Source: a virus (Duplodnaviria > Caudoviricetes). From it: DNA of 64,000 nt. The stretch covers positions 128,001-192,000 of the IMG/VR virus record IMGVR_UViG_3300031555_003626; one strand, given 5' to 3'. The translations under genes and the position numbers were made by a program. Positions 6,034 to 63,645 of this stretch are shown here, piece by piece. The notes beneath the pieces were generated by a model, which saw only the letters and a list, made by a program, of their open reading frames with translations, was not told where the DNA came from and searched no databases. The first letter of the stretch is position 1. Every line of letters begins with the position of its first letter.

Positions 6034-6037
6034 ACTT

Positions 6038-7095: not shown

Positions 7096-7268
7096 GCTGT
7101 AAGTGGTGTAAGTTTTGTAAATATGGATATCCTCACTTTGAAAAAGGAAAATGTGTAGTTTACTGTAATTTATCAGTTCTTAGCTACCCGGTGCAGAAAG
7201 ACCCGTTTGATACCTGTAAAGACTTTGAAAGTGAGGAAGAGAATAATGAAGATACTGAACTTACTTAA
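7092..7268 (+). CDS. Small Cys-rich hypothetical protein (58 aa, not in track)
   Basis: GGAGG RBS, ATGA overlap, MSCKWCKFC...C.DF. Confidence 0.65.
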   Translation: MSCKWCKFCKYGYPHFEKGKCVVYCNLSVLSYPVQKDPFDTCKDFESEEENNEDTELT

Positions 7269-7521
7269 GAAACGAGCTAATTTTTCTATGATAAAAAAGT
7301 GCCCTTTTTGCGGCGGCATACCTAAGTTATCACGATGTGGTGACCAAAGAGACCTTTGGTATGTTCGATGTACGGAATGCTGTGAAACACCTATTGACTG
7401 GGGTGAAGCAAAAGTAAACCCTGATAGTGCTGTAAAGATTTATAATAAAAGAGCAGAATACGCTGAGCACCTTATAAGAATATATAATCGAGTTAAGGAG
7501 AAGAAAAATGAAATACAGTAA
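7246..7521 (+). CDS. Lar family (restriction alleviation-like) Zn-finger protein
   Basis: KKCPFCGG...VRCTEC...AVKIYNKR. Confidence 0.65.
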   Translation: MKILNLLKKRANFSMIKKCPFCGGIPKLSRCGDQRDLWYVRCTECCETPIDWGEAKVNPDSAVKIYNKRAEYAEHLIRIYNRVKEKKNEIQ

Positions 7522-8104: not shown

Positions 8105-8423
8105 GAATACGCCTAAGACAAAGAAATATTTAGACAGTCTGCCTAAGGTCTACGGGCTTTTTCTCTGGGCTAAGTGGGGCATGCTTGAGCTACCTTGGTC
8201 TGGCAAATATACTAAAGGTGATATTGCAGTTCCTTTAGTTTATCATTACTACGACGCCAATGGAATGTGCGATGAATATCATTTAGTGCCAATTAATAGT
8301 TGCTCAAGTGGCGCTTTCTGGGATTGGTATGAGTTTAAAAATAATGCTGAAGAAGTACAGGAAATACTTAACGAAGCCTTAAGCAGAGGAGAAATTGGTT
8401 ATAGTGAAGGAGAAGATATTTAA
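8085..8423 (+). CDS. Hypothetical protein
   Basis: GGAGG RBS before ATG 8085. Confidence 0.7.
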   Translation: MARKVLKNTPKTKKYLDSLPKVYGLFLWAKWGMLELPWSGKYTKGDIAVPLVYHYYDANGMCDEYHLVPINSCSSGAFWDWYEFKNNAEEVQEILNEALSRGEIGYSEGEDI

Positions 8424-8632
8424 TGAGATGGCCTTATAAATCTAAAACAGTATACGATCGAATTAAAAGACGATTTGCTCTTTTTCCAGTTGCAATAAAG
8501 GATACTTGGGTCTGGCTTGAACACTACTACAGCTTTTCTTGGGAAGATTATGGTGGTCCTAACATAGTACGTTTCTATACCTATGAGTCGGCAAAGGAGT
8601 GGGTGAGATCTTGGGAGGAAGATGGTGAATAA
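8423..8632 (+). CDS. Hypothetical protein
   Basis: TAATG overlap; RFALFPV...WVWLE. Confidence 0.7.
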   Translation: MRWPYKSKTVYDRIKRRFALFPVAIKDTWVWLEHYYSFSWEDYGGPNIVRFYTYESAKEWVRSWEEDGE

Positions 8633-8948
8633 TTTTGAAAACTTAAAAAAGATGTCTTTAGAGGACTTTGCGGCTTGGCTTGACGAGAATGGTATGTTTG
8701 ATAACTCGTCTTGGACAAACTGGTTCGCTAAGAAGTATTGTGATAATTGTGAGTCTATTGAATGCCGTTATGTAGAGGCAAAAGAAAAGCTCGGTATTAC
8801 ACCTTTTTATGATGATACTATCGAATGTGCCTATTGTGAGTTAGCCGACGAGTCTGGCATAAAGAGATGCAGATTTTTCCCGGATTTGGATGATATACCA
8901 AACAATAGAGAAGTTATTAAAATGTGGCTTGAGGAGGAGGCAGAATAA
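8622..8948 (+). CDS. Hypothetical Cys-containing protein
   Basis: GGAGG RBS; NFE.LK.MS.E...WL motif. Confidence 0.7.
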   Translation: MVNNFENLKKMSLEDFAAWLDENGMFDNSSWTNWFAKKYCDNCESIECRYVEAKEKLGITPFYDDTIECAYCELADESGIKRCRFFPDLDDIPNNREVIKMWLEEEAE

Positions 8949-9203
8949 ATGAGTTATTATAGTGAAACTTTTGAGCGACCGGAGATCGGAGAAACTATTT
9001 ATTTCATCGGCTATGGTATTGTAGAAGCTCTTAAGATTGTAAAGATTACTACAGAAGAAACCGAAGAGCAATTTATTGGATACGTGGATGCTTGCAGATC
9101 TGATGGTACTACTGAGAGTATCGGTTTTAATGTTTTCGGCGAGCTTGCTTTTGTATACAAAGAAGAGGCTGAAGTGGCTTTGAGCCAGGTGGAGGTAGAA
9201 TGA
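8949..9203 (+). CDS. Hypothetical protein
   Basis: P.IGETIY...F..KEEAE module. Confidence 0.7.
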   Translation: MSYYSETFERPEIGETIYFIGYGIVEALKIVKITTEETEEQFIGYVDACRSDGTTESIGFNVFGELAFVYKEEAEVALSQVEVE

Positions 9204-9409
9204 AAAGAAAACAATACTTATATGCCATTTCTTATTGGTGTACGGACAAAGAGGGACGAAGTGGTCAGAGCTGTAGTTTAATTACCCGCCCTACTAAAAT
9301 TAACACTGTAAATAGCTTCTATGATATGTCTGACTATCTTAGAGAACGTAATCAATTTAAGACTATTGCAATTTGTAATATTATGCTGCTTGGTAAGGTG
9401 AAAGTATGA
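9200..9409 (+). CDS. Hypothetical protein
   Basis: ATGA overlap, GGAGG RBS. Confidence 0.65.
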   Translation: MKRKQYLYAISYWCTDKEGRSGQSCSLITRPTKINTVNSFYDMSDYLRERNQFKTIAICNIMLLGKVKV

Positions 9410-9726
9410 AGATTGACGATTATGTTTCAGGTACAGCTTTTATAAGATTGTATAGAAGTCATTTTAAGTATGAGGAAGACTTTGAAAATATTTTAAGATT
9501 TCTTAAGATGTCTGAGAGGAATACTTTTATTGACCTGCCTGTTTATGAGAATGAAGTAAAAGGATCTTTTAGAGATTTTCCCGGAACTCGTCATGCTAAG
9601 TGGTCTAGGTATTCTTCTACAATGATGGAATGTAGCGCTTGTAAGAAGCATGTTCCGTATCACAGATATTACTATTATTGTCCGCAGTGCGGTTCAAAGA
9701 TGGAGTTTGCCGATGAAAACATGTAA
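9406..9726 (+). CDS. Hypothetical protein with C-terminal Zn-ribbon
   Basis: CSAC...YCPQCGSKM. Confidence 0.7.
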   Translation: MKIDDYVSGTAFIRLYRSHFKYEEDFENILRFLKMSERNTFIDLPVYENEVKGSFRDFPGTRHAKWSRYSSTMMECSACKKHVPYHRYYYYCPQCGSKMEFADENM

Positions 9727-9958
9727 AGACTGCAAATATTTTATGGGCATGGGAGACTGGAACCTTTGTTGCTCAAATCCGCCCGCGAGAGCAAAAGATA
9801 GCTGGTGTGGCTTCTTGTGCTATGAAGATACGGAAGCTTGTGAAAACTTTAAGGAAAAAGGTCAAGCAGAAAAGTTTACTGAACAGGTACTGGTAGGGAA
9901 GCTTCCGTCTATCGATGAAGTTAAAGATTTTGGAATTCAATATGTGGAGCGAGGATAA
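9713..9958 (+). CDS. Small Cys-rich hypothetical protein
   Basis: GGAG RBS; MKTCKDCKYF. Confidence 0.65.
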   Translation: MKTCKDCKYFMGMGDWNLCCSNPPARAKDSWCGFLCYEDTEACENFKEKGQAEKFTEQVLVGKLPSIDEVKDFGIQYVERG

Positions 9959-9961
9959 ATA

Positions 9962-10363
9962 ATGACTGAAAATTTTTCACCTGAATTAATAAATGAATGT
10001 GCTAAGGACCTTTGCTTTTATGGTGATAAATGCGAATGCAGATGCACGGAAAGAAATTGTGAAACATCGTGGCTGGCTGAGAATCTTCTTAGAGCTGGTT
10101 GGGTAAAACCGCCGGCTTATATCGGAATGAAGGTTTGGGTGCCGCATGTCTGGATGTTTAAAGAGGTTATGACCGACCTTAGAGAAGGCCACGTTTCCGG
10201 CTTACAGCAGAAGGCAGATAAGTCTTGGAAAATTAGAGTGACTCGGAACGGCTCTGTGGCTGACTATACGGTCGAGGAATTTAACAAATACTGTTTCTTT
10301 AATAAAGAGGATGCTGAGAATTATATTGAAGAAAAAGTAAAGGAGTACGCTAATGGCAATTAA
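9962..10363 (+). CDS. Hypothetical protein
   Basis: GAGG RBS; PP.IG.KVW module. Confidence 0.7.
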   Translation: MTENFSPELINECAKDLCFYGDKCECRCTERNCETSWLAENLLRAGWVKPPAYIGMKVWVPHVWMFKEVMTDLREGHVSGLQQKADKSWKIRVTRNGSVADYTVEEFNKYCFFNKEDAENYIEEKVKEYANGN

Positions 10364-10565
10364 TGACGGATTTGAAAAGCTTGTAAAGCTTCCTGAGGTT
10401 TGTAATGGTACTGACTATGAACTTAGCGAGCTTGCCGCGATTGCTTGGGAAAAGGTAAGTGAGGAGTCTGCTCTCGGAGTTAGTGCTATCACTTATATTG
10501 ACCCTGATGACACTATCGTCAAGAAGGTCTGGCACGACGGCATGACCGAATATTATTATACTTAA
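10353..10565 (+). CDS. Hypothetical protein
   Basis: AAGGAG RBS. Confidence 0.7.
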   Translation: MAINDGFEKLVKLPEVCNGTDYELSELAAIAWEKVSEESALGVSAITYIDPDDTIVKKVWHDGMTEYYYT

Positions 10566-10575
10566 GGAGGTTTAT

Positions 10576-10911
10576 ATGACTTTTAAAGAACGAATGACTG
10601 AGAAAGCAAATAAGTATGATACTAATGATAAAATAAAAGAACATATCGATAATATAAAAAATAAGATCGAGACGTTTTATCACAAAAGAAGCCTTACAGT
10701 AACTTTAATTGATGCTCATACGACTGTGGCTATCGGCGGAGGTAATTCGAATCGTTATGACCTGTTTGTTCCGGGTTGGATTAAGCCTCTGGAATATCAG
10801 CAGCTGTTTGTAGATGCCTTTAATGAGATTGGCTTTACAGATAAGGACATGGAGTTTGTCTTTGTGCCGGGTAAATCGTTCGATGAATATAATATTATTT
10901 TAAAGTGGTGA
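10576..10911 (+). CDS. Hypothetical protein
   Basis: AAGGAGG RBS. Confidence 0.75.
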   Translation: MTFKERMTEKANKYDTNDKIKEHIDNIKNKIETFYHKRSLTVTLIDAHTTVAIGGGNSNRYDLFVPGWIKPLEYQQLFVDAFNEIGFTDKDMEFVFVPGKSFDEYNIILKW

Positions 10912-10915
10912 AGAT

Positions 10916-11272
10916 ATGACTAATAAAAAAAGACTTACTCAGTTAATTTGTGAAAGCTATCAGACAGACGAGTGTATAGCTCATTGTAATTATGGTCCGT
11001 GCTGTACTTGCGAGCGTATTACCAATTATTTAGAGGCGAACGGTTGTATAGTATCGCCTTGGAAAATTGGCGATACCGTCTACTATATTACAAAGGACTA
11101 CAAAATCGATACAGATACCGTAATTAGACTTACTATTACTTCAACAGGGATTAATCCTATATTAAAGCGTCACAATCGAGGTTTTTGGAAACATTATAAA
11201 GGACGTTGGTTTAAGACTTTGTTTGAAGCAGAAGATTACTTGGAAGAATTAAAGGAGTGGATAGAAGGCTAA
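10916..11272 (+). CDS. Hypothetical protein
   Basis: PWKIGDTVYY module. Confidence 0.7.
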   Translation: MTNKKRLTQLICESYQTDECIAHCNYGPCCTCERITNYLEANGCIVSPWKIGDTVYYITKDYKIDTDTVIRLTITSTGINPILKRHNRGFWKHYKGRWFKTLFEAEDYLEELKEWIEG

Positions 11273-11670
11273 TGAGACTCGTTGATGCGGACATGCTTTT
11301 AAAACATAAACAATCTTATGAACTTCCAGACCCTAACGGTGGAGATTATCATATAGATGCAATTAATGCCTACTATGTTATTAATGCACCTACAGTAGAA
11401 ACAGCTGTAGTTCCACCTGTAGACGTGGGCGATAAAGTTTGGTATATCCATGGTGGCTATTATAATTCAGCTCGTCAGGAACCCCGCGAGATAGAGGTTA
11501 CCGAGATTAATAAAAAGAAGAGTGGTAAAACTATTGACTGGGCGTTTGTTGCTAATAGTACGAGATATAAGTTTTCCAGTATTGGTAAGACAGTATTTCT
11601 CACAAAAGAAGATTGTTTGGCAGCGATTAATAACAAAAAAGCTAAAAATTACAAACAGCATATCGTATAA
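11272..11670 (+). CDS. Hypothetical protein
   Basis: MRLVDAD...NAPTV plus VGDKVW...VFLTKE modules. Confidence 0.7.
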   Translation: MRLVDADMLLKHKQSYELPDPNGGDYHIDAINAYYVINAPTVETAVVPPVDVGDKVWYIHGGYYNSARQEPREIEVTEINKKKSGKTIDWAFVANSTRYKFSSIGKTVFLTKEDCLAAINNKKAKNYKQHIV

Positions 11671-11706
11671 TAAAATATAAACAAAATTTTACTAAGGAGA
11701 AAACAA

Positions 11707-12063
11707 ATGAATATTTTTGGACTTACTATTACTACTAAGAAAAAGCAGCTTGCACGTATCGCAAAGCACGATGAGGAGGTTCAGGAGCTTAAGAATATGA
11801 TTATTGAGCTTAATGAAGAGCTTTATGATATGGTAGATGCTTTCCCTTTTTATATGGGTCAGGTCGTTTACGACGTAGCTCTTAAGAACGCGCAGGGTAG
11901 ATATACTAAGACTAAGCCTTCTCGTGAGCACTGCACCATCACTGAAGTAGAGGTAAACGAGAAGAACTACTTCGGCCTTAAGAAGCGTCTTGAGAACAAT
12001 GACGTCTTTTATGAGCATGAGGAAGCAGTAGAGTATCTTGATTCGGTTTGCAAAAATGTATAA
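11707..12063 (+). CDS. Hypothetical protein
   Basis: Promoter motif and AAGGAG RBS. Confidence 0.75.
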   Translation: MNIFGLTITTKKKQLARIAKHDEEVQELKNMIIELNEELYDMVDAFPFYMGQVVYDVALKNAQGRYTKTKPSREHCTITEVEVNEKNYFGLKKRLENNDVFYEHEEAVEYLDSVCKNV

Positions 12064-13111
12064 GCTTTTAGATAATATAATGCTCGTCTGCAGAGATGAA
12101 TGTCACCGTAAAAGTACAGATGCTCTGCAGGCGTATCTTGTAGACCCTTCTAATAAGAGTCAGCTTAAGTCAGCGAGAACTTGGGCTACTTGGACTGAGT
12201 ACGGCAATTATGTTAAAACTGAATCAGGTAAGTGGGAGTATGAGTGGACTGAGAAACATGAGCCGCTTGAATATACTTTCGGCAATCAGCATTTTAGACT
12301 AGAGCTTCTTGATTGTGCTGGCGGAAGCTCTCAGGGTGGCAAACTCAGTTTCTGGAATTGCATTGTATCAAAAGATGACCAGAGATTTAAGATTGGTATT
12401 AATTCTGAGATGCTTCTTGAACTTTTGAAGAATGCGACTTTTGTTAAGGGAGTTTGTCAGGACGACCTGCTTTTCGTGACTGATAACGGAAGAGTCGGTA
12501 TGTGTGCCGAGGGCTCTCAGGTTCATAGAGACGCTATTAAAGATATGGAAATTAAGGCAGAGTCCAAAAAGAATGCTGTTTCTAAGTTTTCTTTTGGAGA
12601 CATTATTACAACGCCGACATTAAGAGAAGTATATCTTGGTACAGTTACTCAGTATTATACTTTTGACCCAGGCAATAATGATCAGTATAATTATTCACAT
12701 ATGCATTATCGTGATTGTACAATTACTAAGTTAGCTAAGCCTATTACTTGTCATGTCTTTGATAGTATCTATGGAGCAAAAACTAAGGTATCAGACTTTC
12801 TTAATGATTACGGAACTTCCCGCTGGTATTCATATCCTGATTTTAAGAAAACCTGTCCTAAGCGAGCTATTGATGGGAAGCTTGAGTTAGATTGCTCAGA
12901 GGAGTATTTTAAAGAAGAGCTAATAAAGAAAATTTATGATTATTCAGCTTTCGAAAAGTATGTTAATACATCATATTTGCGACCAGATGATAGAGTACTA
13001 TATTACTTCTTAGACAAAGAGACGTTTGGCTTTGGTTTTGAGCCTTTCGAAATTCCTGAGGACATTATGGCTAAGATTAAGGCAGCCGGTATTAGATATA
13101 TAGAAGAATAA
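12056..13111 (+). CDS. Hypothetical phage protein (351 aa)
   Basis: Long co-oriented ORF; SSQGGK motif. Confidence 0.8.
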   Translation: MYKLLDNIMLVCRDECHRKSTDALQAYLVDPSNKSQLKSARTWATWTEYGNYVKTESGKWEYEWTEKHEPLEYTFGNQHFRLELLDCAGGSSQGGKLSFWNCIVSKDDQRFKIGINSEMLLELLKNATFVKGVCQDDLLFVTDNGRVGMCAEGSQVHRDAIKDMEIKAESKKNAVSKFSFGDIITTPTLREVYLGTVTQYYTFDPGNNDQYNYSHMHYRDCTITKLAKPITCHVFDSIYGAKTKVSDFLNDYGTSRWYSYPDFKKTCPKRAIDGKLELDCSEEYFKEELIKKIYDYSAFEKYVNTSYLRPDDRVLYYFLDKETFGFGFEPFEIPEDIMAKIKAAGIRYIEE

Positions 13112-13133
13112 ATAATATAAAGGAGATTTAATT

Positions 13134-13256
13134 ATGAACATTAATGAACTTAAGATTGTAAATCGTATTGAACTTCTCAAGTCACGTAAGGCCGAGAATG
13201 GAAGAATCATTAAGAAGCAAGAAAGAAAACTTGCAAAAGTTAGAGGCGAGAGATAA
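13134..13256 (+). CDS. Small basic protein (40 aa, not in track)
   Basis: AAGGAG RBS; NRIELLKSR...N..IIKK.ERKL. Confidence 0.65.
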   Translation: MNINELKIVNRIELLKSRKAENGRIIKKQERKLAKVRGER

Positions 13257-13906
13257 TGATTAGTACACAACGTTTACGTAAAATACTTGGGTGGCTTGGA
13301 GCCTTACTTCCTTTAATAGTACTTTGTTTAGCCCTTATTTTTGGTTATGGCTTCCCGGATTCAATTTCGGCTACTTATTACCTTGACCCTTGTATTACAC
13401 CGTTTATGATTATCCTTGGCGCTGCTGGCATACTGTTAATTAGCTATATGGGTTATGATAGACAGGATGATATTATTTGTACTATTGCAGGTAGCCTTGC
13501 TCTTGGTATTTGTTTATTTCCATGCGCTCTAAATGGTTTAGTCTTGAGATGGCCTGAATTAGCAGAATTAACTCGAGTAGGTACTTTTCAGATTATTCCA
13601 GCTGTTAGTGGTATTATACATAATATTTGTGCTATCGGCTTCTTTGCGTTGCTTGCGTATAATTCGATATTTTTATTTACAAAAACCAGCGGTAATATGA
13701 CTGAGAATAAGAAGAAAAGAAATATTATTTTCTGTATATGCGGAATTGGAATGATTGCTTCCTTTCTTGCTATTATACCGATAAGTATTTTTGAAATTTG
13801 GGGTGGCGTTTGGATAGTTGAGGCTATTGCTCTCGCTTTCTTTGGTGTTTCTTGGCTCACTAAAGCAGGTTGTTATCCCTGGTTGTTTGCCGATAAGAAA
13901 AATTAA
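13256..13906 (+). CDS. Multi-pass membrane protein (DUF998-like)
   Basis: About 6 TM segments; SISATYY, IHNICA..FF, VEAIAL. Confidence 0.65.
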   Translation: MISTQRLRKILGWLGALLPLIVLCLALIFGYGFPDSISATYYLDPCITPFMIILGAAGILLISYMGYDRQDDIICTIAGSLALGICLFPCALNGLVLRWPELAELTRVGTFQIIPAVSGIIHNICAIGFFALLAYNSIFLFTKTSGNMTENKKKRNIIFCICGIGMIASFLAIIPISIFEIWGGVWIVEAIALAFFGVSWLTKAGCYPWLFADKKN

Positions 13907-13983
13907 ATAAAATAATAAAATAGCTTCCACTGGTATCGTATAATATATCAGTGGAATTTTTATTTATACAAAGGAGAAAAGCT

Positions 13984-15411: not shown

Positions 15412-16041
15412 ATGATTGAATACAATAAGATTGATACTCTTTACAAGAGAGATATGGAAGGAACTAAGAAGCTTCTCGAGGGTGAGTTTAGAAATCCTAC
15501 AGTAGAGTTTCTTAAGGATAATATTTGGACTTTTACCGAGAAGATTGACGGAACCAATATATCCGTTTGTTGGGATGGACATACTATTACATTTAACGGC
15601 AGAACAGAAAGAGCTGAGATTCCTACACATCTTCTTAACTACCTTATGGCTACTTTTAAGACAAATGAGGCTGAACAGATTTTTGAGGAGAAGTTTGGTG
15701 AGACGCCGGTAATTCTTTTTGGTGAGGGCTATGGTCCTAAGATTCAGAACGGTGGAAACTACAGAGCTGACGTAAGCTTTATTATGTTTGACGTTCTTAT
15801 TGCAGGCAACTACCAGCCTAGAGAATCCGTAGAAGATATCGCAAAGGCATTTGGTATTGATATCGTGCCTATTATCTTCGAGGGAACTATTCAGGAAGGC
15901 GTAAACTTTGTAAAGGGTCATCCTGATTCTACTATGGGTACCGCAAAAATGGAGGGTCTCGTTGGTCGTCCTAAGATAGAGATGCGCGACCGTTGTGGTA
16001 AGCGAGTTATTGTTAAGATTAAGTGGGAAGACTTTAAGTAA
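15412..16041 (+). CDS. RNA ligase, Rnl2-like adenylation domain
   Basis: TEKIDGTN, FGEGYG..IQ, FDV, VP, EGLV, KIK. Confidence 0.8.
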   Translation: MIEYNKIDTLYKRDMEGTKKLLEGEFRNPTVEFLKDNIWTFTEKIDGTNISVCWDGHTITFNGRTERAEIPTHLLNYLMATFKTNEAEQIFEEKFGETPVILFGEGYGPKIQNGGNYRADVSFIMFDVLIAGNYQPRESVEDIAKAFGIDIVPIIFEGTIQEGVNFVKGHPDSTMGTAKMEGLVGRPKIEMRDRCGKRVIVKIKWEDFK

Positions 16042-36879: not shown

Positions 36880-37977
36880 ATGGCAGAAAAACAATTAAGT
36901 ACCATTATCGTTCTAAGAAACGACAAGTCTACTGACTGGGCTACTTCTGAAGTTATTCTTCGTGAAGGTGAACTCGGTGTTTCTTACTTAGATAATGGCA
37001 ATGTAATGGTTAAGGCCGGTAATGGTGTCGACAAGTTTGCAGATCTTCCTCAGGTTGAGTCTGTTCTCGAGTCTGACATGATGCTAACCTATAGCTTTGG
37101 TAAGCATACCGTTCCCACTGGTGGTTCCTTAAACGCTGGAGGCACCGGAATGACCATGTCTCAGTGGCTTGCAGACTCCCTTAAGAAAACTGTTGAGCCT
37201 ACTATCAAGCGTTATCCTAATGCAGGACTTTCCGCAAGTTGCTCTAATTCTGGAGCATCTCTTGAAATTGGCTCTTACATTACTTCTGTTTCTTACACCG
37301 GATCTCTTAGTGAAGATGGTGACTACGAAACAAACGGTAAGGAGACCGCTTCAGGCATTAAGTCAAGTGACCTTAGCTGGGAAGTAACTCTTGGAGATGA
37401 TGCAGCTACTAAGAAGACATCTAGTACTGGTAGCTATACAACTAATATTCAGATTAATAGCACGACAGCAAACACTGTTTATGCAACAGTTAAAGCTAAG
37501 GCTACTTTAAGTCTAGATAATGTAGTAACTCCTACTAATAACCTTGGTGAGGCAAGTTCTACTGTTAAAATTAAGGGTTATGACGCAGCTGGTACCACTG
37601 TAAAGAACCTTACTGCTGATGTTAAAGCAAGCGGTTATCGTAATACCTGGTCTTATGTTGGCACAGACGACACCTTTGAGCTCACATCGGCAAATATCAG
37701 ATCAAAGTTTACTGCGAAGAATGCTTCTACAACTTCTTTTGGTACTGTAACAATCCCTGGTGGTACAAAGAGAGTTGCCTTTGCTGTTCTTGGTGATAAG
37801 ACTCTTAAATCTGTTATTGACGTTGATGGCCAAAACCTTGACGTTAAGGCAAACTTTACAAAAGAAACAATCGCTATTGAAGGCGCTAACGGTTTTGAGG
37901 CAGCTAACTACTCTGTATTCCACTTTGAGAATCCTAATGGTGTTGCTGCTACTAAGTATACTGTAACAATCGGTTAA
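36880..37977 (+). CDS. Tail fibre-associated protein with Mtd/hyaluronidase-type N-terminal domain
   Basis: LRND...W...L..GELG...KAGNGV..F.DLP. Confidence 0.7.
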   Translation: MAEKQLSTIIVLRNDKSTDWATSEVILREGELGVSYLDNGNVMVKAGNGVDKFADLPQVESVLESDMMLTYSFGKHTVPTGGSLNAGGTGMTMSQWLADSLKKTVEPTIKRYPNAGLSASCSNSGASLEIGSYITSVSYTGSLSEDGDYETNGKETASGIKSSDLSWEVTLGDDAATKKTSSTGSYTTNIQINSTTANTVYATVKAKATLSLDNVVTPTNNLGEASSTVKIKGYDAAGTTVKNLTADVKASGYRNTWSYVGTDDTFELTSANIRSKFTAKNASTTSFGTVTIPGGTKRVAFAVLGDKTLKSVIDVDGQNLDVKANFTKETIAIEGANGFEAANYSVFHFENPNGVAATKYTVTIG

Positions 37978-37996
37978 TAAGGAGGACGAATAAATT

Positions 37997-40981
37997 ATGG
38001 CAATGAATTATCAAAATTTCGCCTCTCTTGGCGTTAACTTAAATAGACAGAAATATGGTCCTCTGGATATTTCTAATGTATTTACTTCCGCTGCGGATTT
38101 AAAATACTACTTAACTAAGGGTACATTTACAGAGGGTGTATCCGAATATTGGTACAAGAACGCGAACGAAAAGATTGTTCCTTATCCTTATGAAGGTCAA
38201 GTTCTTGCTACCGTTATTGACGGTGTTGTTGAAGTATTCGTTCTTGCTCTTGATGCAGAAGGTAACTTCGAAACTCGTGAGATCGCAGGTAAGATTGAAG
38301 TAGACGGTACTACAATTGTTAAGGATGCCAATGGTAAGCTTTCTATCGTTGCTCCTGTTAATCCTGACTCTACTAAAACTTATAACTTCTCTTATGCAAA
38401 TGGAGTATACTCTTGGGTAGAAGTTGATACTGCTACTGCTGCTGGACAGGCACAGGCTATTGCAGGTCTTACTGATCGTACTGTAGCTCTTGAAACAACT
38501 GTTAATGGTAAAGCAGCTGTTGGTGAAGAGGGTGCTGAAGGTTATCAGCCCGCTGTTGTAGGTCTTGTAGACAAGGTTGCTGCTCTTGAAGCTGTTGACA
38601 ATGCTACTCAGGCTGAACTTGATGCTTACAAAGAAGTAGTTACTGCTGCTATTGCTGCTGGCGTTAAGGAAGCAAAAGACTATGCAGATGCTCAGGATGC
38701 TGACACTGTTTATGATGATACCGAACTTGCTGGTCGTGTATCTGCTATCGAGGCAGATTATCTAAAGACTGCTGATAAGTATGATGACACTGAACTTGCT
38801 GGTCGTGTAACTACTATCGAAAATGACTACCTAAAGAAGTCTGACGAGACTATCTATGATGATACTGCTCTTGCTGGTCGTGTAACAACCGTTGAAGGTA
38901 AGGTAGCAGACCTTGAAGATGCTGTTGCTGCTATTGATTATATCGATGCCGATGAGCTTGCTGATGCACTTGCTCCTATTAATGAGGCTCTTGGTACTAA
39001 GGCGGCACAGGCGGACTTAGAAACTCTTAAGGGCAGAGTTGATACTTTCTTTGAGGGTACCGGTGTTGAAAACGTAATTGATACTCTTGAAGACCTAATT
39101 AACTTCATTAATACTCATGATGACGTTGAAGTTTCTGGCATTCTTGCTAGTATTGAAGCTATCGAAGGTAAGCTTGCTGGTATTGATAGCACTGTTGCTG
39201 CTTATGTAACTGCTGCTATTGAGGCTCTTAAGATTGGTGATTATGCTAAGGCTGCAGATCTTACTGCTCTTGTAGATAGAGTTGCAGTTCTCGAGGCTAA
39301 GCCTTTCGATACTTATGCTACTAAGACAGAAGTTCAGGGCGTAGACGCTAAGTTTGCTGACTATACTACAACTTCTGACCTTAACACTCTTCTTGCTGAC
39401 AAGGCAGATGTAGATAGCGTAGTTGCTAATACTGCTTTTGAGACATTCAAGGGTGAAAATACTACTGCTATTGCTACCGCTAAGCAGGAAGCAATCGACG
39501 CTGCTAAGGCTGCTGAGGAAGCCAAGGGCTACGCTGTTGATGCAGATGTAAAAGCAACTTATGCAACTAAAGCAGAGCTTACAACTCATGAAGAGAGTAT
39601 TGCTAATGACCTTCTCGCTTATGCTAAGACAGCAGATGTAAATAAAGAACTTGCTAAGAAAGTTGAATCTGCTACAATTGTTCATGCTATTGCGGCTGAC
39701 CCTGATAATGGTATTGAGGCTATTCCTGAGGGTGTAACCAAAGACGGTGCTACTCTTAAGATTGTTGTTGATGCTCCTACAAGAGCTGAAACAACTCAAA
39801 TGATTGCTGATAAGGTTGCTGCTGTTACTGGTGGTGAATCTGCAGCAGCAGTTAAACTTCTTGTTGAGGCTGAAACTGAAAGATCTATTGCTAAAGACGA
39901 AGCTCATGATGCTGCTCTTGCAACTCTTCAGGGCGACGCGTCTAAAGCAGGCTCTGTAGCTGAAGCTAAGGCTCTTGCTCAGAAGGGTGTTGATGATGCT
40001 GCTGCTGTTGCTGCAAATCTCGTAACAGCTAATGCCGCTATTGCAGATAATGCTCGTGAAATCGGTGTTGCTAAAGATTCTATCAATACAGTTAATAATA
40101 CATTAACTGAGAAGATTACTGCTCTTGAAAATGCTGATACAAAGTTTACCGGTGATATTGCTTCTCTTCAAGGTATTGTAAGCGGTGAAGGTGGTCACGC
40201 TTCTCGTATTACAGCTCTTGAAGGTCGTGCAACAAATCTTGAAGCTAAGGATACTGAGCTTGCAGCTCTTATTCAGAGCAACACTGATAAATTTGCTGGC
40301 TATTACACTAAGGGCGAAGTTGACGCTGCTGTTATCACTTCCGGTGAAGTTGTTCGTGGTGCTGCCGATTCTATCACAATTGCTAATAATAAGATCACTG
40401 TAACTCTTAATAGCTATACTAAGGGTGAAGTTGATGATCTTCTTGCTAACCTTGACCAGACCGCTCTTGAGACAGGCATTGCTAATAATGCTTCTGATAT
40501 CGCAATTCTTGTTGGTGACGACAAAGATGCAGAGACGGGTAGAGCAGCTAAGTCTGTTAGAGCAATTGCTGCTGAGGAAGCAAAAGCTGAGGTTGCTGCT
40601 CTTGTAGGTGAGGCTCCCGATGCTCTCGACACTATCCATGAAATTGCTTCTTGGATTGAGAATGATACAACTGGCGCTGCAGCTATGAGCGCTGAAATTG
40701 CTGAGCACTCTGCAATTTTAAGTGGTTTCGGTGGTGAAGGCCAACCTGCTACGGTAGCTACTGCTATTGCTACTGCCAAGGCTGAGGCTATTGAAGCTGC
40801 TACATTTACTCTTGGAGTTGCTACTGCTGAAAAGCTTGGTGGTGTTAAATCCGCAAGTGGTGATAATAAAGTCGCTGTTGCTGAAGATGGCGTAATGAGC
40901 GTTGCTACTGTTAATGTAAGCACTCTCGCTCAGACTGCTGGCGATGTGCTTGTTCTCAATGGTGGCTCTGCAGCTGTCTAA
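37997..40981 (+). CDS. Long coiled-coil tail fibre protein
   Basis: 994 aa Ala-rich coiled coil, 3x YDDT(E/A)LAGRV, APDALDTI.EIA, AT..KLGGVK. Confidence 0.75.
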   Translation: MAMNYQNFASLGVNLNRQKYGPLDISNVFTSAADLKYYLTKGTFTEGVSEYWYKNANEKIVPYPYEGQVLATVIDGVVEVFVLALDAEGNFETREIAGKIEVDGTTIVKDANGKLSIVAPVNPDSTKTYNFSYANGVYSWVEVDTATAAGQAQAIAGLTDRTVALETTVNGKAAVGEEGAEGYQPAVVGLVDKVAALEAVDNATQAELDAYKEVVTAAIAAGVKEAKDYADAQDADTVYDDTELAGRVSAIEADYLKTADKYDDTELAGRVTTIENDYLKKSDETIYDDTALAGRVTTVEGKVADLEDAVAAIDYIDADELADALAPINEALGTKAAQADLETLKGRVDTFFEGTGVENVIDTLEDLINFINTHDDVEVSGILASIEAIEGKLAGIDSTVAAYVTAAIEALKIGDYAKAADLTALVDRVAVLEAKPFDTYATKTEVQGVDAKFADYTTTSDLNTLLADKADVDSVVANTAFETFKGENTTAIATAKQEAIDAAKAAEEAKGYAVDADVKATYATKAELTTHEESIANDLLAYAKTADVNKELAKKVESATIVHAIAADPDNGIEAIPEGVTKDGATLKIVVDAPTRAETTQMIADKVAAVTGGESAAAVKLLVEAETERSIAKDEAHDAALATLQGDASKAGSVAEAKALAQKGVDDAAAVAANLVTANAAIADNAREIGVAKDSINTVNNTLTEKITALENADTKFTGDIASLQGIVSGEGGHASRITALEGRATNLEAKDTELAALIQSNTDKFAGYYTKGEVDAAVITSGEVVRGAADSITIANNKITVTLNSYTKGEVDDLLANLDQTALETGIANNASDIAILVGDDKDAETGRAAKSVRAIAAEEAKAEVAALVGEAPDALDTIHEIASWIENDTTGAAAMSAEIAEHSAILSGFGGEGQPATVATAIATAKAEAIEAATFTLGVATAEKLGGVKSASGDNKVAVAEDGVMSVATVNVSTLAQTAGDVLVLNGGSAAV

Positions 40982-57785: not shown

Positions 57786-58712
57786 ATGGCTAAGTTGATT
57801 ATTTTATGTGGGCTTCCTGGAAGTGGAAAGAGCTATTATGCTGCCCAGCTATGGCGAAGAGAAAACACCTTTGATGAGCCTACTGCAGTAGTACACTCTT
57901 CAGATGCTATAAGAAAAGAACTTTTCGGCGATGCAGGCTCGCAGGAAAATAATGCTCTTGTATTTGAGACTATGCATAAGAGAGTAAAGGACGACCTTAG
58001 AGCAGGTAAGACTGTAATTTATGATGCAACTAATATTACTCGAAAGTCTCGTCGTGGAATAATCAATATGACTACTAAAGACGATATTGTTGAGTGCCAT
58101 ATTGTTTGGGCGCCTGTTGATACTTGTATTAAGCGAGATGCCAAGCGCGAGCGCCACGTAGGTAGAGAAGTAATTGATAAGATGATTCGTCGTTGGCAGA
58201 GCCCACATAAGTCTGAAGGTTTTACTTGTATCGATGTTATCTGCTCAGACCCTAACTTTGATCAGACTAAGTACGTAGCAATGCAGGCTGACCAAATGCA
58301 TATACCCCATGACAACCCCCATCACACTCTTGGTGTTTGGGATCATTGTATGCAGGCTTATTACTATCTTTGCCAGCAGCCTAATATCAATGATGACCTG
58401 AAGACTGCTACAATGTGGCATGATATCGGAAAGCCTTATACTAAATCGTGGCATATCGATAAAGTAAACGGAGCAGTAGATTATTCACACGCTCATTATT
58501 ATGATCATCATTGTGTTGGCGGCTATCTTGCTTACGGACTTTTCTTACATAAGGATTTTGATGAGGAAGATGTAGACTTTATGTGTTGGGTGAGCTGGCT
58601 TATCTGCAATCACATGGAGCCTTTCTTTAACTCTCATTGGTATAGAGAACTTCCTGAGCACTTGAAGCAGCCTATTGATATATTGCATGCCGCTGACGTT
58701 TCTGCACATTAA
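57786..58712 (+). CDS. Polynucleotide kinase (AAA_33) fused to HD phosphohydrolase (Pnk-HD)
   Basis: GLPGSGKS, SSD.IR, YDATN..R..R, then HH...H...HDIGK...H...HM...AD. Confidence 0.85.
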   Translation: MAKLIILCGLPGSGKSYYAAQLWRRENTFDEPTAVVHSSDAIRKELFGDAGSQENNALVFETMHKRVKDDLRAGKTVIYDATNITRKSRRGIINMTTKDDIVECHIVWAPVDTCIKRDAKRERHVGREVIDKMIRRWQSPHKSEGFTCIDVICSDPNFDQTKYVAMQADQMHIPHDNPHHTLGVWDHCMQAYYYLCQQPNINDDLKTATMWHDIGKPYTKSWHIDKVNGAVDYSHAHYYDHHCVGGYLAYGLFLHKDFDEEDVDFMCWVSWLICNHMEPFFNSHWYRELPEHLKQPIDILHAADVSAH

Positions 58713-58804: not shown

Positions 58805-58862
58805 AGAGCCTATACTTATTTCTAACATAAATTTTGGGAATTTAAAAGTTGACAGTTAGGCC
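58805..58862 (+). ncRNA. Y-RNA-like bulged stem cassette without tRNA domain (leader of the Ro-like/TerD gene)
   Basis: agagcctatacttatttct...agttaggcc; same motif as 61045, 61211 and 61338 with compensatory changes. Confidence 0.6.
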
Positions 58863-58963
58863 AAAATTGAGATACTACTTTATTATAAGGCGGTGGCTTA
58901 TTTTGGTTTAGATCAAAAAGCTACCGTTATTTTATTTTGATTTTATTTAAAAGGAGATACATT

Positions 58964-60943
58964 ATGACTACTATTCAGAAGATTCTTATTTCTCGTCGTA
59001 TGCTTGTAGCAGATACTATTCCTACTAAGTCTGCTTTTAGACTTGAGGGCGCATATCTTAATGCGTTTCTTCTCGCTAACTTTGGTATTGTTGTAGATAA
59101 GCCTGAACTTCTTACTAAGGAAATGGTAAAGGACATCTCTGATGTTTATAAGCTTAACGTACCTAAGTCTTATTTCGCAAATCCTCAGGATACTAAGTTC
59201 TATACTGCTGAAGAGCTTCTTATAGAGCAGTGTATCTCTTATTTCCTTGCTTATGGTGCGGAGGATTCTCATGTTCACATTTTTGATAAGGAGCTTCCTG
59301 AGTACCCTGTAGGTGAGGAGATCAAGATTCGTGAGTTCCGTATTCTTGACGCCGACGAAGCAGAAGCCGAGCTTATGGAGATTACTAAGGCTTATGCTGC
59401 TTATAAGCGCCCTTGGGGCCTTGATGAGGCAGCAGAGTTCCTTGAGCTCTACAAGAATGGCTATTACAGATTTACCGAGATGCCTGTAAACTGTGGCGAC
59501 AACGCTGTTCTTATGCTCGGTGAGAACACTGATTTCGCACAGTTTCTCTTTAAGAAGGACGTTGTAAAGCTTTCTGTAGCTCGTTGTGGCGAGAAGAAGG
59601 AACTTTCTCTTGATGGCGCTACTCGTGGCCTTATCAAGGCAATTATTCCTCTCGTTAAGGACTGTCCTATGTCTAAGAAGCAGGCAAAGTATTTCAATAC
59701 TCTTGTCAAGCTTACCGGTTCTAAGGTAAAGAAGGCTTCTAATGAGGCATCTCCTAATAGACTTGCTCTTGAAAAGTTGAATGCTGGTGACGTTGTTGGT
59801 GCTGCAAAGATTTTTGCAAAGAGTGGTTCTCTTCTTGAGAGAAATCTTAAGTTCCTTCTTTCTCGTGCAAATCCTAGGGAGGCAATACAGATTCTCGACA
59901 TGCTTTCTAATGAGAACCCTGCTGTTCTTTATCAGATAATGTCTACTGTTCTTGCTGACAACGAGGAGGCTCGTACCTTCTCCTTCTACGCAAAAAATAG
60001 AATTAAGACTCATATTGAGACTGAGTACGAGGCTCGTTGGAGAAAGTCCAGACTTAATGACGCAACTAAGAAGCTTGTACACGATATGTGCTTTGAGAAG
60101 ATTGCTGAGCATTATGTAAACACTGAGTCTCTCCGTAAGGTTTACATCGCTCCTAATTTCTATAAGGTAGCAATGCCTGTTAATACTTCTGCCTCTGGTA
60201 AGGGTATCGACGTTCCTGCTACCGGAACTAGACTTCCTATCAACGGCACTAAGATCAGATCTTTCGTACATTGGGAGAATGCTTTCGATATTGACTCCTC
60301 TACTATCTACGAGTTTGGCGATGGCTCTCTCAAGATGATTAATTTTTGCAGTTATAATTACGAGAACTTCGATGGCGCTGCTCGCTTCTCAGGTGATATT
60401 ACTGGTCCTAAGGGTACTGAGTATTTCGACCTTGACCTTGAGTCTCTTAAGGAACAGGGTGTAAAAAGAGTAGTATTTACCTTCCATGGTTATTGTTCTA
60501 CTCTTGACTCCGGCGAGATTTATTGCGGTTACCAGAACAAGAATAACTTCAATACTAAGGCCTGGGATCCTAAGAACATTGAGCTTAAGATTCACGTTAA
60601 GGGTGAGAAGCGTGCCTATGTGGCATTTGCTATCGATCTTGAGACTATGGAGATTATAGTACTCAACCTGATGCGCGATGATGACTCTCGAGTTGTTTCG
60701 CCTAAGGACTTTGAGGCTATTAAGGCTTTCATGGATCCTGCAAAGCTTGAACTCAATATGGGTCTTATTGCTGAGTGGCGTGCAGCTGAGGTTGTTGAGA
60801 CCCCTGAAGAGGCCACTGTTATCTTCTCGGATGACTATGTTGTAAAGGAAGTGGAATTGGCAGAGAATGAGGTACCTGTACCTGCTCCTGTAGTAATCCG
60901 TTCCTTCGATATTGAGAAGCTTAACATGATTGCAAACGTTTAA
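58964..60943 (+). CDS. Helical-repeat (putative Ro/TROVE-like) protein with C-terminal TerD-like domain
   Basis: C-terminus FVHW....DIDSS...FSGDIT....EYFDLDL..L...GV..VVF...Y is TerD-like; the Ro-like call for the helical N-terminus is inferred from architecture and flanking RNAs. Confidence 0.6.
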   Translation: MTTIQKILISRRMLVADTIPTKSAFRLEGAYLNAFLLANFGIVVDKPELLTKEMVKDISDVYKLNVPKSYFANPQDTKFYTAEELLIEQCISYFLAYGAEDSHVHIFDKELPEYPVGEEIKIREFRILDADEAEAELMEITKAYAAYKRPWGLDEAAEFLELYKNGYYRFTEMPVNCGDNAVLMLGENTDFAQFLFKKDVVKLSVARCGEKKELSLDGATRGLIKAIIPLVKDCPMSKKQAKYFNTLVKLTGSKVKKASNEASPNRLALEKLNAGDVVGAAKIFAKSGSLLERNLKFLLSRANPREAIQILDMLSNENPAVLYQIMSTVLADNEEARTFSFYAKNRIKTHIETEYEARWRKSRLNDATKKLVHDMCFEKIAEHYVNTESLRKVYIAPNFYKVAMPVNTSASGKGIDVPATGTRLPINGTKIRSFVHWENAFDIDSSTIYEFGDGSLKMINFCSYNYENFDGAARFSGDITGPKGTEYFDLDLESLKEQGVKRVVFTFHGYCSTLDSGEIYCGYQNKNNFNTKAWDPKNIELKIHVKGEKRAYVAFAIDLETMEIIVLNLMRDDDSRVVSPKDFEAIKAFMDPAKLELNMGLIAEWRAAEVVETPEEATVIFSDDYVVKEVELAENEVPVPAPVVIRSFDIEKLNMIANV

Positions 60944-61044: not shown

Positions 61045-61157
61045 AGAGCCAATGCTTATTTCTTTGCCTGTTAAGCCGTGTGTCGCAGGTTCGAATCCTG
61101 CCATCCCGCTGCAGTGGGATGTAGCTCAGTGGTAGAGCAACGATTATTAGCTTGGCC
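61045..61157 (+). ncRNA. Circularly permuted tRNA-Asn(GTT)-derived, YrlA-like RNA
   Basis: Conserved stem, then gc-ctgttaa-gccgt, T arm gcagg-ttcgaat-cctgc, closed acceptor catcccg/tgggatg, D arm tagctcagtggtagagc, acg, then stem 3' strand. Confidence 0.8.
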
Positions 61158-61210
61158 AAAAATTAATATTAAAGCAAAATTTGCTATTAATCTATCGTAT
61201 AATATAACAT

Positions 61211-61328
61211 AGAGCCAATACTTATTTCTTTAATGCTGGGGACTGCGATCGTAGGTTCGACTCCTGCCCCGCCGACCAATCGGTGGGTAGCCAAGCGGTA
61301 AGGCAGCGGTTAAATTAATAGTTTGGCC
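61211..61328 (+). ncRNA. Circularly permuted tRNA-Pro-derived, YrlA-like RNA
   Basis: tgggg-actgc, T arm gtagg-ttcgact-cctgc, acceptor cccgccg-ACCA-at-cggtggg (C1-G72, A73), D arm, gcggt. Confidence 0.8.
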
Positions 61329-61337
61329 AAAAAGTTT

Positions 61338-61451
61338 AGAACCAATGCTTATTTCTTATGATTTTCCAGCTGGCCGTGCGGGTTCGATTCCCGTCGCTCG
61401 CAGAGCGGGTGTAGCTCAATGGTAGAGTTCCAGCTTTCATTTAGCTTGGTC
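61338..61451 (+). ncRNA. Circularly permuted tRNA-Gly(TCC)-derived, YrlA-like RNA
   Basis: ttcca-gctgg, T arm gcggg-ttcgatt-cccgt, acceptor cgctcgc-aga-gcgggtg, D arm, ccagc. Confidence 0.8.
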
Positions 61452-61467
61452 ATATTTTGTTTAATAT

Positions 61468-61577
61468 GGGCTGATTAGCTTAGTGGTAAACCTTGGGTAG
61501 TTTCACATACCAAGTTAAGAGGCAGAGCCCCTCCCTTCAAAGGAGGAGACTCCGGTTCGACTCCGGAATCTGGCCCA
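61468..61577 (+). tRNA. tRNA with UCA anticodon (UGA-reading) and D-loop insertion
   Basis: cctcc-cttcaaa-ggagg anticodon arm, T arm tccgg-ttcgact-ccgga, bulged 8-bp acceptor; about 35-nt hairpin in the D loop. Confidence 0.6.
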
Positions 61578-61585: not shown

Positions 61586-61740
61586 GCTCCTGTGGCGGAA
61601 TAGGCAGACGCTGTGGACTTGTTTGAGTAGTTTAATGTAAAACAAGTCCGCAAGACTGATGTGAGTTCAAGTCTCATTTCAAGCACCAAAAATCCACTGC
61701 CCGTAAGGGCGTACCGGTTCGAGTCCGGTCAGGAGCACCA
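61586..61740 (+). tRNA. tRNA-Leu(TAA) interrupted in the anticodon by a nested tRNA-like element (61621-61688)
   Basis: Removing the insert gives an 87-nt class II tRNA with gtgga-cttaaaa-tccac and ACCA end. Confidence 0.85.
61621..61688 (+). other. Nested tRNA-like insert 1 (68 nt, ends ACCA)
   Basis: gtttgag/ttcaagc acceptor, gttt/aaac D stem, agtc-cgcaa-gact, gtgag-ttcaagt-ctcat. Confidence 0.8.
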
Positions 61741-61744: not shown

Positions 61745-62248
61745 TCTGAGAACTCCTATATGATGAAATGATATACTCTATAGCAAGCTCAGCGTTAGCC
61801 CACCTCGAGTGCGTTAATCTCGAGTATTTATCGTGAGGGGCATGAATGATTTCTGTACATATATTGTGAATTTCGAATACTTGGTAGAGCAAGAAGGACG
61901 ATAACTACTTCTTTGGATCGTACAGCATTAATGATTTACTGAGTATCTCGACGTTAGGACTGATAAATAATTTAATAACCTTGAGGCGATTGCTACCTTG
62001 AAAGATAGGAGCAGACTTGAAAGAGCACTCGCGGACCAAAAGAAGTTAATTGTCGAGAAAACCGCGGACTTCGGTCTCATAATCGACGGATTGTGGGATT
62101 TAGTGACTAGGATGAGGTGTGGCTACGCAGACCAACTTATATAAATGACGGACGGGTAAATAGATCTGAAAAGTGAAATAACCGAGAAGTTTATATGCAT
62201 AGTGTCTAGGCGTAGAGTAGAGGCGATGTAAATTATTTATCAGACACC
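61745..62248 (+). ncRNA. Candidate large pseudoknotted ncRNA (~500 nt) inside tRNA cluster
   Basis: No credible ORF; perfect 15-bp pair 61960-61974/62229-62243 crossing pair 61899-61916/62036-62055. Confidence 0.55.
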
Positions 62249-62810: not shown

Positions 62811-62947
62811 TGAGCTATGGTGTAAAGGTAGCACAACAGACTTTCGTGGATTAGCATAAGTAATGCACTACATGGTTATAATAGTTCAAGTCTATTATTC
62901 ACGGCCAGACTCTGTTGGTTTTGGTTCGAATCCAGATAGCTCAGCCA
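62811..62947 (+). tRNA. tRNA-Gln(TTG) interrupted by a nested tRNA-like element (62845-62907)
   Basis: Removing the insert gives a 74-nt tRNA with acaga-ctttgac-tctgt, T1-A72, GCCA end. Confidence 0.85.
62845..62907 (+). other. Nested tRNA-like insert 2 (63 nt, ends GCCA)
   Basis: cgtggat/attcacg acceptor, gcat/atgc D stem, aatag-ttcaagt-ctatt T arm, vestigial anticodon arm. Confidence 0.8.
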
Positions 62948-63446: not shown

Positions 63447-63645
63447 GCTTCCGTAGCTCAGCTGGTAGAGCAACAGACTTTGATTGAATCGTTTAAATGG
63501 GTTATTAGATTAGTGAATGGTATAAACCTAATTTAATAAGTTCTGTTCGTAGGACATCGGCCTGATAGCCGAAGATGTGAGTTCAAGTCTCGTTTCAGTC
63601 ACCATAATCTGTGGGTCGCGGGTTCGATTCCCGCCGGAGGCACCA
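63447..63645 (+). tRNA. tRNA-Lys(TTT) interrupted by a nested tRNA-like element (63482-63604)
   Basis: Removing the insert gives a 76-nt tRNA with acaga-cttttaa-tctgt and ACCA end. Confidence 0.85.
63482..63604 (+). other. Nested tRNA-like insert 3 (123 nt, Ile-like, own D-loop hairpin, ends ACCA)
   Basis: gattgaa/ttcagtc acceptor, tcggc-ctgata-gccga (6-nt loop), gtgag-ttcaagt-ctcgt. Confidence 0.8.

Follow-up and report, generated by a model that had tools for sequence, protein, structure and literature searches.

Nested tRNA genes in large rumen and gut phages: a mobile family of tRNA-shaped inserts within tRNA anticodons

An RNA-rich island with three interrupted tRNA genes

The DNA analyzed here is a stretch of 64,000 nucleotides (the window), which corresponds to bases 128001-192000 of IMG/VR virus record IMGVR_UViG_3300031555_003626. 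The record (labeled G000) is the 233-kb genome of an uncultured phage, rated complete in IMG/VR, and most of its genes have no assigned function. A series of ORFs of 300, 622, 339, and 284 aa occurs at both ends of G000 (approximately 2091-13920 and 227005-232413) and hints at either a long terminal repeat or, in a circularly permuted genome, an overlap in the assembly. Non-coding RNAs are concentrated in an island that starts at approximately 57.8 kb of the window and contains a polynucleotide kinase/HD (PNK-HD) gene, a gene for a 668-aa protein, YrlA-like RNAs, and many tRNAs. ARAGORN at default settings reports only two tRNAs in the whole window. Three interrupted tRNA genes were revealed by ARAGORN with introns allowed and by the Rfam tRNA model, and in each of them the interrupting segment is itself shaped like a tRNA. 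The features are given below, where R1 is the covariance model of the inserts.

58937-60943: gene for the 668-aa protein, without a Pfam family
61586-61620, plus strand: 5' exon of tRNA-Leu(UAA), ending at U34 (GTGGA-CTT); ARAGORN, fold, and Rfam
61621-61688, plus strand: tRNA-shaped insert in tRNA-Leu, 68 nt; RF00005 35.9 bits, R1 71.3 bits
61689-61740, plus strand: 3' exon of tRNA-Leu(UAA), beginning at A35 (AAAA-TCCAC), with a CCA end
62811-62844, plus strand: 5' exon of tRNA-Gln(UUG), ending at U35
62845-62907, plus strand: tRNA-shaped insert in tRNA-Gln, 63 nt; acceptor CGTGGAT/ATTCACG, T arm AATAG-TTCAAGT-CTATT, GCCA; R1 56.4 bits
62908-62947, plus strand: 3' exon of tRNA-Gln(UUG), beginning at G36
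63447-63481, plus strand: 5' exon of tRNA-Lys(UUU), ending at U35
63482-63604, plus strand: tRNA-shaped insert in tRNA-Lys, 123 nt, with extra internal hairpins; R1 34.4 bits
63605-63645, plus strand: 3' exon of tRNA-Lys(UUU), beginning at U36

The joined Leu exons form an 87-nt cloverleaf with the loop CUUAAAA and the anticodon UAA, which places the insert between U34 and A35. The first-pass annotation had read the same site from the exon ends CTT and AAAA-TCCAC, and the joined cloverleaf, ARAGORN, and Rfam agree with it. ARAGORN with introns reports Leu(taa) i(36,68), which makes U34 the last base of the 5' exon, and the Rfam tRNA model covers the whole gene at 39.4 bits with a 71-nt gap within the anticodon loop. 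The insert consists of a 7-bp acceptor stem (GTTTGAG/TTCAAGC), a D arm (GTTT/AAAC), a T arm (GTGAG-TTCAAGT-CTCAT), and an ACCA tail. By itself, it scores 35.9 bits against RF00005 (E 8e-7), with the anticodon arm handled as a deletion, and its tRNA likeness is therefore not a matter of chance. A 4-bp stem and a 5-nt loop stand in place of the anticodon arm, not the 5-bp stem and 7-nt loop by which a decoding tRNA is recognized.

In the minimum-energy fold of the full Leu precursor, GTGGACTTGTTT (61613-61624) pairs with AAACAAGTCCGC (61642-61653) over 12 bp. This pairing joins the end of the 5' exon and the start of the insert to an inner stretch of the insert and competes with both cloverleaves. 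It is kept in locus L023 via a G-U change and is absent from the other Leu inserts; it may be a product of chance or a folding switch.

The Gln (62845-62907) and Lys (63482-63604) inserts sit at 35/36, as first annotated. Over their final 31 nt, the Leu and Lys inserts agree in 28 nucleotides. Two of the mismatches fall in the 3' strand of the acceptor and are compensated in the 5' strand (GTTTGAG/TTCAAGC in Leu and GATTGAA/TTCAGTC in Lys). The near-identity of these 3' halves, from which a shared ancestor had been proposed, thus holds. The anticodon stem ACAGA/TCTGT is also identical in the Gln (62838-62844, 62911-62915) and Lys (63475-63481, 63608-63612) genes and differs from that of their intact counterparts in L006. 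Co-conversion of the flanking exon during insert transfer, or chance, could account for it.

Positions 61045-61458, directly downstream of the 668-aa gene, hold three circularly permuted tRNA shapes (T arm, loop-closed acceptor, and D arm), each within a conserved bulged stem, AGAGCCAATGCTTATTTCT ... TTAGCTTGGCC, and each with a promoter-like TATAATATAAT ahead of it. The Rfam YrlA (Y-RNA-like) matches at 61077-61143, 61249-61304, and 61356-61458 are all sub-threshold, with 43, 24, and 32 bits, respectively. A fourth Y-like copy, without cargo, lies directly upstream of the 668-aa gene (58805-58870). A GOLLD RNA is found past the end of the window (L003 6994-7507, which is G000 195494-196007), at 156.3 bits versus a gathering score of 150, and it holds a YrlA-like or tRNA-like segment (L003 7047-7192).

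Other unusual shapes lie between and beside the nested genes. A tRNA-like gene at 61461-61570 has an extra hairpin that follows the D region, and its anticodon arm, CCTCC-CTTCAAA-GGAGG, would read UGA; ARAGORN makes no call there, the Rfam tRNA model covers only a part (61513-61567, 31.9 bits), and a similar element precedes tRNA-Leu in L057. Between tRNA-Leu and tRNA-Trp, approximately 500 nt (61745-62248) hold no credible ORF and no Rfam match at E <=1. The segment 62378-62466 is a tRNA-like oddity, called by neither ARAGORN nor Rfam, with two T-arm-like hairpins (GAGG-TTCGATT-CCTC and GCCGG-TTCAAGT-CCGGT), acceptor pairing at 6 of 7 positions, and no CCA. A tRNA-Tyr(GUA) that runs from 63861 through 64000 on to L003 3523 carries an expansion of approximately 84 nt, which by eye is closed by the variable-arm stem GCTTCA/TGAAGC. 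The expansion is kept in a relative (L006 16044-16206), and ARAGORN miscalls the gene as an intron-containing Asn. A second, normal tRNA-Tyr is present elsewhere in the phage genome.

A family of nested inserts in related phages

Relatives were collected via the 668-aa protein and comprised 13 IMG/VR loci and 71 metagenome loci, mostly from rumen and gut. The loci were scanned with ARAGORN and a boundary rule (7-bp acceptor at the start, T arm, and NCCA end), followed by ARAGORN on the joined flanks. This first survey yielded 15 distinct nested inserts, and a junction-pattern scan of IMG/VR yielded five more, which gives 20 distinct inserts in rumen and gut phage contigs. The Leu 3'-junction pattern had 26 matches in IMG/VR, 16 of which proved to be ordinary tRNAs with AAAATCC after them. 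A Leu gene of L034 holds a related 68-nt insert, whose boundaries could not be fixed and which was left out of the count. The host tRNAs and sites are as follows.

Leu(UAA), site 34/35: 12 distinct inserts, 4 of the 12 found via a pattern that presupposes 34/35
Lys(UUU), site 34/35: 3 distinct inserts
Lys(UUU), site 35/36: 1 distinct insert
Gln(UUG), site 35/36: 1 distinct insert
Thr(UGU), site 34/35: 1 distinct insert
Asp(GUC), site 35/36: 1 distinct insert
Glu(UUC), site 36/37: 1 distinct insert

The variation of the site between host tRNAs, first noticed as 34/35 versus 35/36 within the window, extends to 36/37 in a relative. An assembly artefact was rejected as the source of the nested genes, since the design recurs across many independent assemblies.

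The inserts are 49-123 nt long (n = 20). In all 20, the 7-bp acceptor opens at the first base and the final four bases are NCCA. Only the top half of the tRNA is conserved (acceptor, T, and D arms), and the anticodon-arm region ranges from 8 nt in the Lys insert of L007 to approximately 70 nt in the Lys insert of G000. Conservation of this kind matches the requirements of a processing signal and not those of a decoding tRNA. A MAFFT alignment of all 15 first-survey inserts misaligned the 5' halves, and the model was built on the ten short forms. In these ten aligned inserts, the acceptor and T stems are paired in all cells, 9 of the 12 pairs have changed on both sides, and none of 500 shuffles equaled this result, a statistic that is inflated by the five of ten rows that came from a filter on acceptor/T-stem pairing. 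At -1, 19 of the 20 inserts have U and the remaining one has C, and 18 of 20 begin with G. A hand calculation puts the chance of U(-1) in at least 6 of the 7 host-site combinations at approximately 0.06, so that the bias is marginal and suggestive only.

Nested copies score above 45 bits with R1, with long forms as the only two exceptions (34-38 bits), and ordinary tRNAs reach 41 bits at most. An R1 search of 1 Mb of loci and five whole phage records found no free-standing copy of the insert. All R1 matches above 45 bits are nested, which is the reverse of the exclusively free-standing occurrence that the first-pass annotation had named as evidence against its reading. An exact 21-nt pattern of the shared T arm and acceptor had no match in IMG/VR, and blastn of the island, the Leu gene, and the nested Thr gene against cultured phages returned ordinary tRNAs only, or nothing.

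The intact tRNA-Leu(UAA) of L057 is nearly identical to the nested Leu exons of L004, L006, and L025 and reads CTT-AAAA with no duplication. These near-identical exons thus differ in content, with a 102-nt insert in L004, a 67-nt insert in L006, a 78-nt insert in L025, and none in L057. The Leu insert of L025 and the Lys insert of L063 are alike at 76 of 78 positions, and the Leu gene of L063 is intact. The Leu insert of L077 (122 nt, 34/35) is homologous over its full length to the Lys insert of G000 (123 nt, 35/36), and the changes in the hairpins of this pair are compensatory. Near-identical inserts in different host tRNAs show that the element moves. The inserts are therefore a mobile family within tRNA anticodons of large rumen and gut phages, in line with the initial proposal that one element had spread to several tRNAs.

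The origin that had been proposed, in which a tRNA is ligated into a cleaved loop and then reverse transcribed, is possible but unsupported, and no reverse transcriptase gene (RVT_1) was found in the phage genome. An origin by ligation would explain the exactly mature ends of the inserts and the sites within the anticodon, and functional constraint explains both as well. More speculatively, the phage ligase proposed below for sealing, working in reverse, could insert free mini-tRNAs at anticodon loops that a host anticodon nuclease has cut. Such a reaction would account for the exact mature ends, for the differing sites, and for the spread of the element to tRNAs for Leu, Lys, Gln, Glu, Asp, and Thr.

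Cut sites, outer tRNAs, and the proposed splicing

Excision at the ends of the mini-tRNA restores a 7-nt anticodon loop for every insert. For an identity test, the anticodon loop was masked and the joined bodies were compared with 450 intact tRNAs of the same loci. In 15 of the 15 first-survey inserts, the nearest intact tRNA body has the amino-acid identity that is predicted by excision at the mini-tRNA ends. Excision shifted by one base leaves a loop of the same length with the wrong anticodon. These results support the earlier inference that the insert itself sets the splice sites. Since the insert is proposed to carry both cutting signals, it can occupy 34/35, 35/36, or 36/37 in various tRNAs. 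ARAGORN calls Glu, Gln, Thr, Arg, and His where Gln, Lys, Lys, Thr, and Asp are read here. Standard tRNA finders thus miss nested genes or assign the wrong anticodon, and phage tRNA inventories and codon-usage inferences are in error wherever such inserts are present.

No other gene for Leu(UAA), Gln(UUG), or Lys(UUU) was found in the whole phage genome, and the other loci scanned have no intact copy of the nested isoacceptor within the same stretch. Across eight nested Leu genes, none of the seven loop positions varies, against 16 of the 37 other exon columns (Fisher p 0.04), and the anticodon and acceptor stems change by compensation. The outer tRNAs are thus still under selection. The sole isoacceptor copies, the invariant loop, and the compensated stems argue against both dead genes and an unspliced function.

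Two readings without splicing bear on these results. In one of them, the insert disables the tRNA gene and the product is the released mini-tRNA, a decoy or regulator, with the outer halves as waste or carrier. The mini-tRNA carries every release signal as well as a CCA end, and the long forms keep their internal hairpins through compensatory changes, which suggests a role of the insert RNA of its own. However, diverged nested genes retain a perfect cloverleaf with compensated stems and a split anticodon that does not vary, no second copy of the isoacceptor accompanies the nested gene, and the anticodon made by exact excision always fits the body. We consider this reading unlikely. In the other, the composite RNA acts unspliced as a two-domain tRNA mimic, either as bait for an anticodon nuclease or as a partner of the system of Y-RNA-like RNAs and the 668-aa protein. 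The same island holds other RNAs that mimic tRNAs (the permuted-tRNA Y-like RNAs and GOLLD), and the hosts include Lys(UUU), Gln(UUG), and Glu(UUC), which are the classic targets of anticodon nucleases. This reading gives no reason for a split anticodon that matches the body or for sole-isoacceptor status, and the inserts come and go among close relatives with the exons unchanged, as expected of an intron. It is therefore judged quite improbable.

The preferred reading is that host RNase P and an endonuclease for tRNA 3' ends release the mini-tRNA by cuts at its two ends and that a phage Rnl1-type ligase seals the exons, to which we assign a probability of roughly 0.55. First, the primary transcript would fold as two nested tRNA shapes. 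Second, host RNase P would recognize the inner mini-tRNA (7-bp acceptor, T arm, and NCCA) and cut at its first base, which would leave a 3'-OH on the 5' exon. Third, a 3' endonuclease that cuts just after CCA (a Thermotoga-type RNase Z or RNase E) would free the 3' exon with a 5'-phosphate, and the resulting ends would be directly sealable by an ATP-dependent ligase. Finally, the exon halves would be held together by the outer tRNA fold, and the nick in the anticodon would be sealed, most likely by the phage Rnl1-type ligase. The sequences themselves show the anatomy, the exact boundaries, a conserved split anticodon, a mobile element, and ligase genes, and every enzymatic step is what we infer from them. 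The candidate enzymes encoded in the window are the following.

3804-4994, plus strand: T4 Rnl1-type RNA ligase, 396 aa, candidate sealing enzyme (proposed role); PF09511 49 bits, phrog_562 E 2.6e-56
15412-16041, plus strand: protein with an Rnl2-type RNA ligase nucleotidyltransferase domain, 209 aa, alternative candidate for sealing
57786-58712, plus strand: polynucleotide kinase (AAA_33) with an HD-motif C-terminal part, possible end-healing enzyme

In a tRNA, RNase P and the 3' endonucleases recognize the acceptor/T-arm minihelix and the D arm, and bacterial RNase P prefers U at -1 and a 3' RCCA tail. The mini-tRNA has the features of a substrate of both kinds of enzymes: a 7+5 bp acceptor/T minihelix, a T loop, NCCA, and a pyrimidine at -1. 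The U(-1), G(+1) pattern is suggestive in that it fits the preferences of bacterial RNase P. CCA inhibits most RNase Z enzymes. Endonucleases that leave a mature CCA end are RNase Z of T. maritima and RNase E (PMC7479834). RtcB, an RNase Z-type metallo-beta-lactamase, a CCA-adding enzyme, and a tRNA-splicing endonuclease were searched for in the phage genome and none was found; empty family searches are weak evidence, as the Pfam Rnl1 search missed an orthologue in G001 that a protein search caught. Since no RNase Z-like gene was found in the phage, the 3' cut would rest wholly on host activity.

The Rnl1-type gene has orthologues in G001 and G008, two other genomes with nested tRNAs. The ligase is not specific evidence, because the Rnl1 domain is also present in relatives without nested tRNAs in the sampled regions, and RNA ligases and polynucleotide kinases are common in large phages as tools of tRNA repair. 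In G004, G005, and G006, which have no nested tRNAs in the sampled region, the Rnl1 domain lies within an ORF of 760-780 aa. In G004 (37486-38127, which is L012 approximately 7800-8450), this ORF is directly upstream of the homologue of the 668-aa gene. The Rnl1-type gene of G000 is a stand-alone ORF of 396 aa at approximately 54 kb from the 668-aa gene.

A further reading keeps precise removal and rejoining, with cuts made by a dedicated, unrecognized phage endonuclease that reads the shape of the mini-tRNA, and RNase P and RNase Z or RNase E would not be involved. The ends could then be a cyclic phosphate and a 5'-OH, which PNK-HD would heal before ligation. Healing by PNK-HD is needed only if the cuts leave such ends, and the gene at the head of the RNA island would be superfluous if RNase P and RNase Z cut, although its presence is equally explained by repair of damage from anticodon nucleases. 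A dedicated enzyme would also avoid the anti-determinant that CCA presents to RNase Z, and most genes of the phage have no assigned function. Yet no candidate nuclease and no tRNA-splicing endonuclease domain were found, and boundaries that coincide with mature tRNA ends, with U(-1)/G(+1), point most simply to the universal enzymes of tRNA end processing. A dedicated endonuclease is the likeliest of the alternatives, and we still regard it as doubtful.

Comparison with known kinds of tRNA splicing and repair

Similar introns have been seen in phages before. Those in the tRNAs of Lak megaphages were called 'enigmatic', and one of them 'itself may encode a tRNA' (Devoto et al. 2019, PMC6784885, Fig. 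4). The true position of a Lak intron was one base off the prediction (PMC6784885). A 2026 survey likewise noted that introns in jumbo-phage tRNAs 'could encode another tRNA' (PMC13037316). These two papers propose no mechanism, do not tabulate the positions, and do not demonstrate mobility, and no paper on the mechanism, position, or mobility of such phage tRNA introns was found. The Lak introns and the present inserts are alike in being tRNA-shaped elements within the anticodon loop of a large-phage tRNA that are present or absent among related phages. In both, gene finders err by one base and the 3' exon starts directly after the 3' end of the inner tRNA. Inspection of the Lak-A1 sequences shows a hairpin leader of 28-31 nt, followed by a tRNA shape without CCA, in which the discriminator lies directly against the 3' exon. 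In Lak-A1, the 3' boundary alone is thus a tRNA end, whereas the present family has no leader, has a CCA end, and has mature tRNA ends at both boundaries. The R1 model has no match in Lak-A1. By these comparisons, the present family is a variant distinct from the Lak introns, of a kind that has barely been described.

Introns that are spliced by proteins are not known in bacterial tRNAs, in which only self-splicing group I introns are known (PMC11408192). The archaeal and eukaryal introns with a bulge-helix-bulge (BHB) are also excised by protein enzymes and rejoined by a ligase (EndA/Sen, with RtcB or Trl1), and the archaeal ones are also found at non-canonical positions. They differ from the present inserts in lying at 37/38, as opposed to 34/35 to 36/37. 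The Leu junctions do not form a BHB: the inner acceptor helix starts right at the 5' junction and ends 4 nt before the 3' junction. BHB splicing was rejected, as these junctions lack the motif and neither a PF01974 domain nor RtcB was found in the genome.

tRNA-like processing signals are used in mitochondrial tRNA punctuation, MALAT1 mascRNA, and engineered tRNA-guide-RNA arrays. In these cases, as proposed here, RNase P and RNase Z are brought to a longer transcript by a tRNA shape within it and cut at the two ends of that shape; in contrast, the flanks are not rejoined there, and here ligation is required for a working anticodon. The closest parallel to the ligation step is tRNA repair by T4, in which the PrrC anticodon nuclease is countered by Pnkp and Rnl1 (PMC7824862). 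T4 repair and the present phage share an Rnl1-type ligase and a polynucleotide kinase, and the substrate is a nick in the anticodon loop. T4 repair answers a host attack at 33/34, whereas here the gene itself would program the nick.

Taken together with the preferred reading, the inserts could represent a third kind of tRNA splicing in phages that infect bacteria, although we rate this at somewhat less than even odds. It would need neither a ribozyme nor a splicing endonuclease: the mini-tRNA would borrow RNase P and a 3' endonuclease, and an Rnl1-type ligase would splice. To our knowledge, Rnl1-type ligases have so far been known only as repair enzymes, and we know of no tRNA for which splicing by tRNA end-processing enzymes and a ligase has been demonstrated. 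If the proposal is true, the enzymes of tRNA end processing also serve as a splicing machinery, phage Rnl1-type ligases have a housekeeping function in addition to repair, and the inserts are selfish RNA elements of a new kind, which depend on no enzyme of their own.

The last reading to be weighed is that the inserts are self-splicing ribozymes, miniature group I-like or other. [quoted passage not shown] The group I intron of cyanobacterial tRNA-Leu(UAA) sits at 34/35, the same site as the Leu insert, which looks like a coincidence. A group I core (P3-P9) needs approximately 200 nt or more. In contrast, the present inserts have 49-123 nt with a variable interior and no catalytic or other conserved core; their last base is A and not the terminal G that group I requires, and the conserved parts are exactly those of a tRNA, namely its top half. 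A search of the Leu insert with RF00028 gave no match even at E 10, with an intron of relative L013 as a positive control at 40.7 bits. Group I self-splicing was rejected for this 68-nt insert, which lacks a core and an RF00028 match and ends in CCA. The statement of the first-pass annotation that an insert of 68 nt leaves no room for a group I core is upheld by the same facts, and a ribozyme of any kind is scarcely credible here.

The intron of L013 is a true, compact group I intron in a tRNA-Lys(UUU). The gene (L013 5095-5365, the same as L058) is split by an intron of approximately 183 nt that matches RF00028 from end to end at 40.7 bits (E 3e-9), under the gathering score of 50. Because tRNA-Lys(UUU) is interrupted by a group I intron in this relative, both kinds of introns appear to compete for the same niche in this group of phages.
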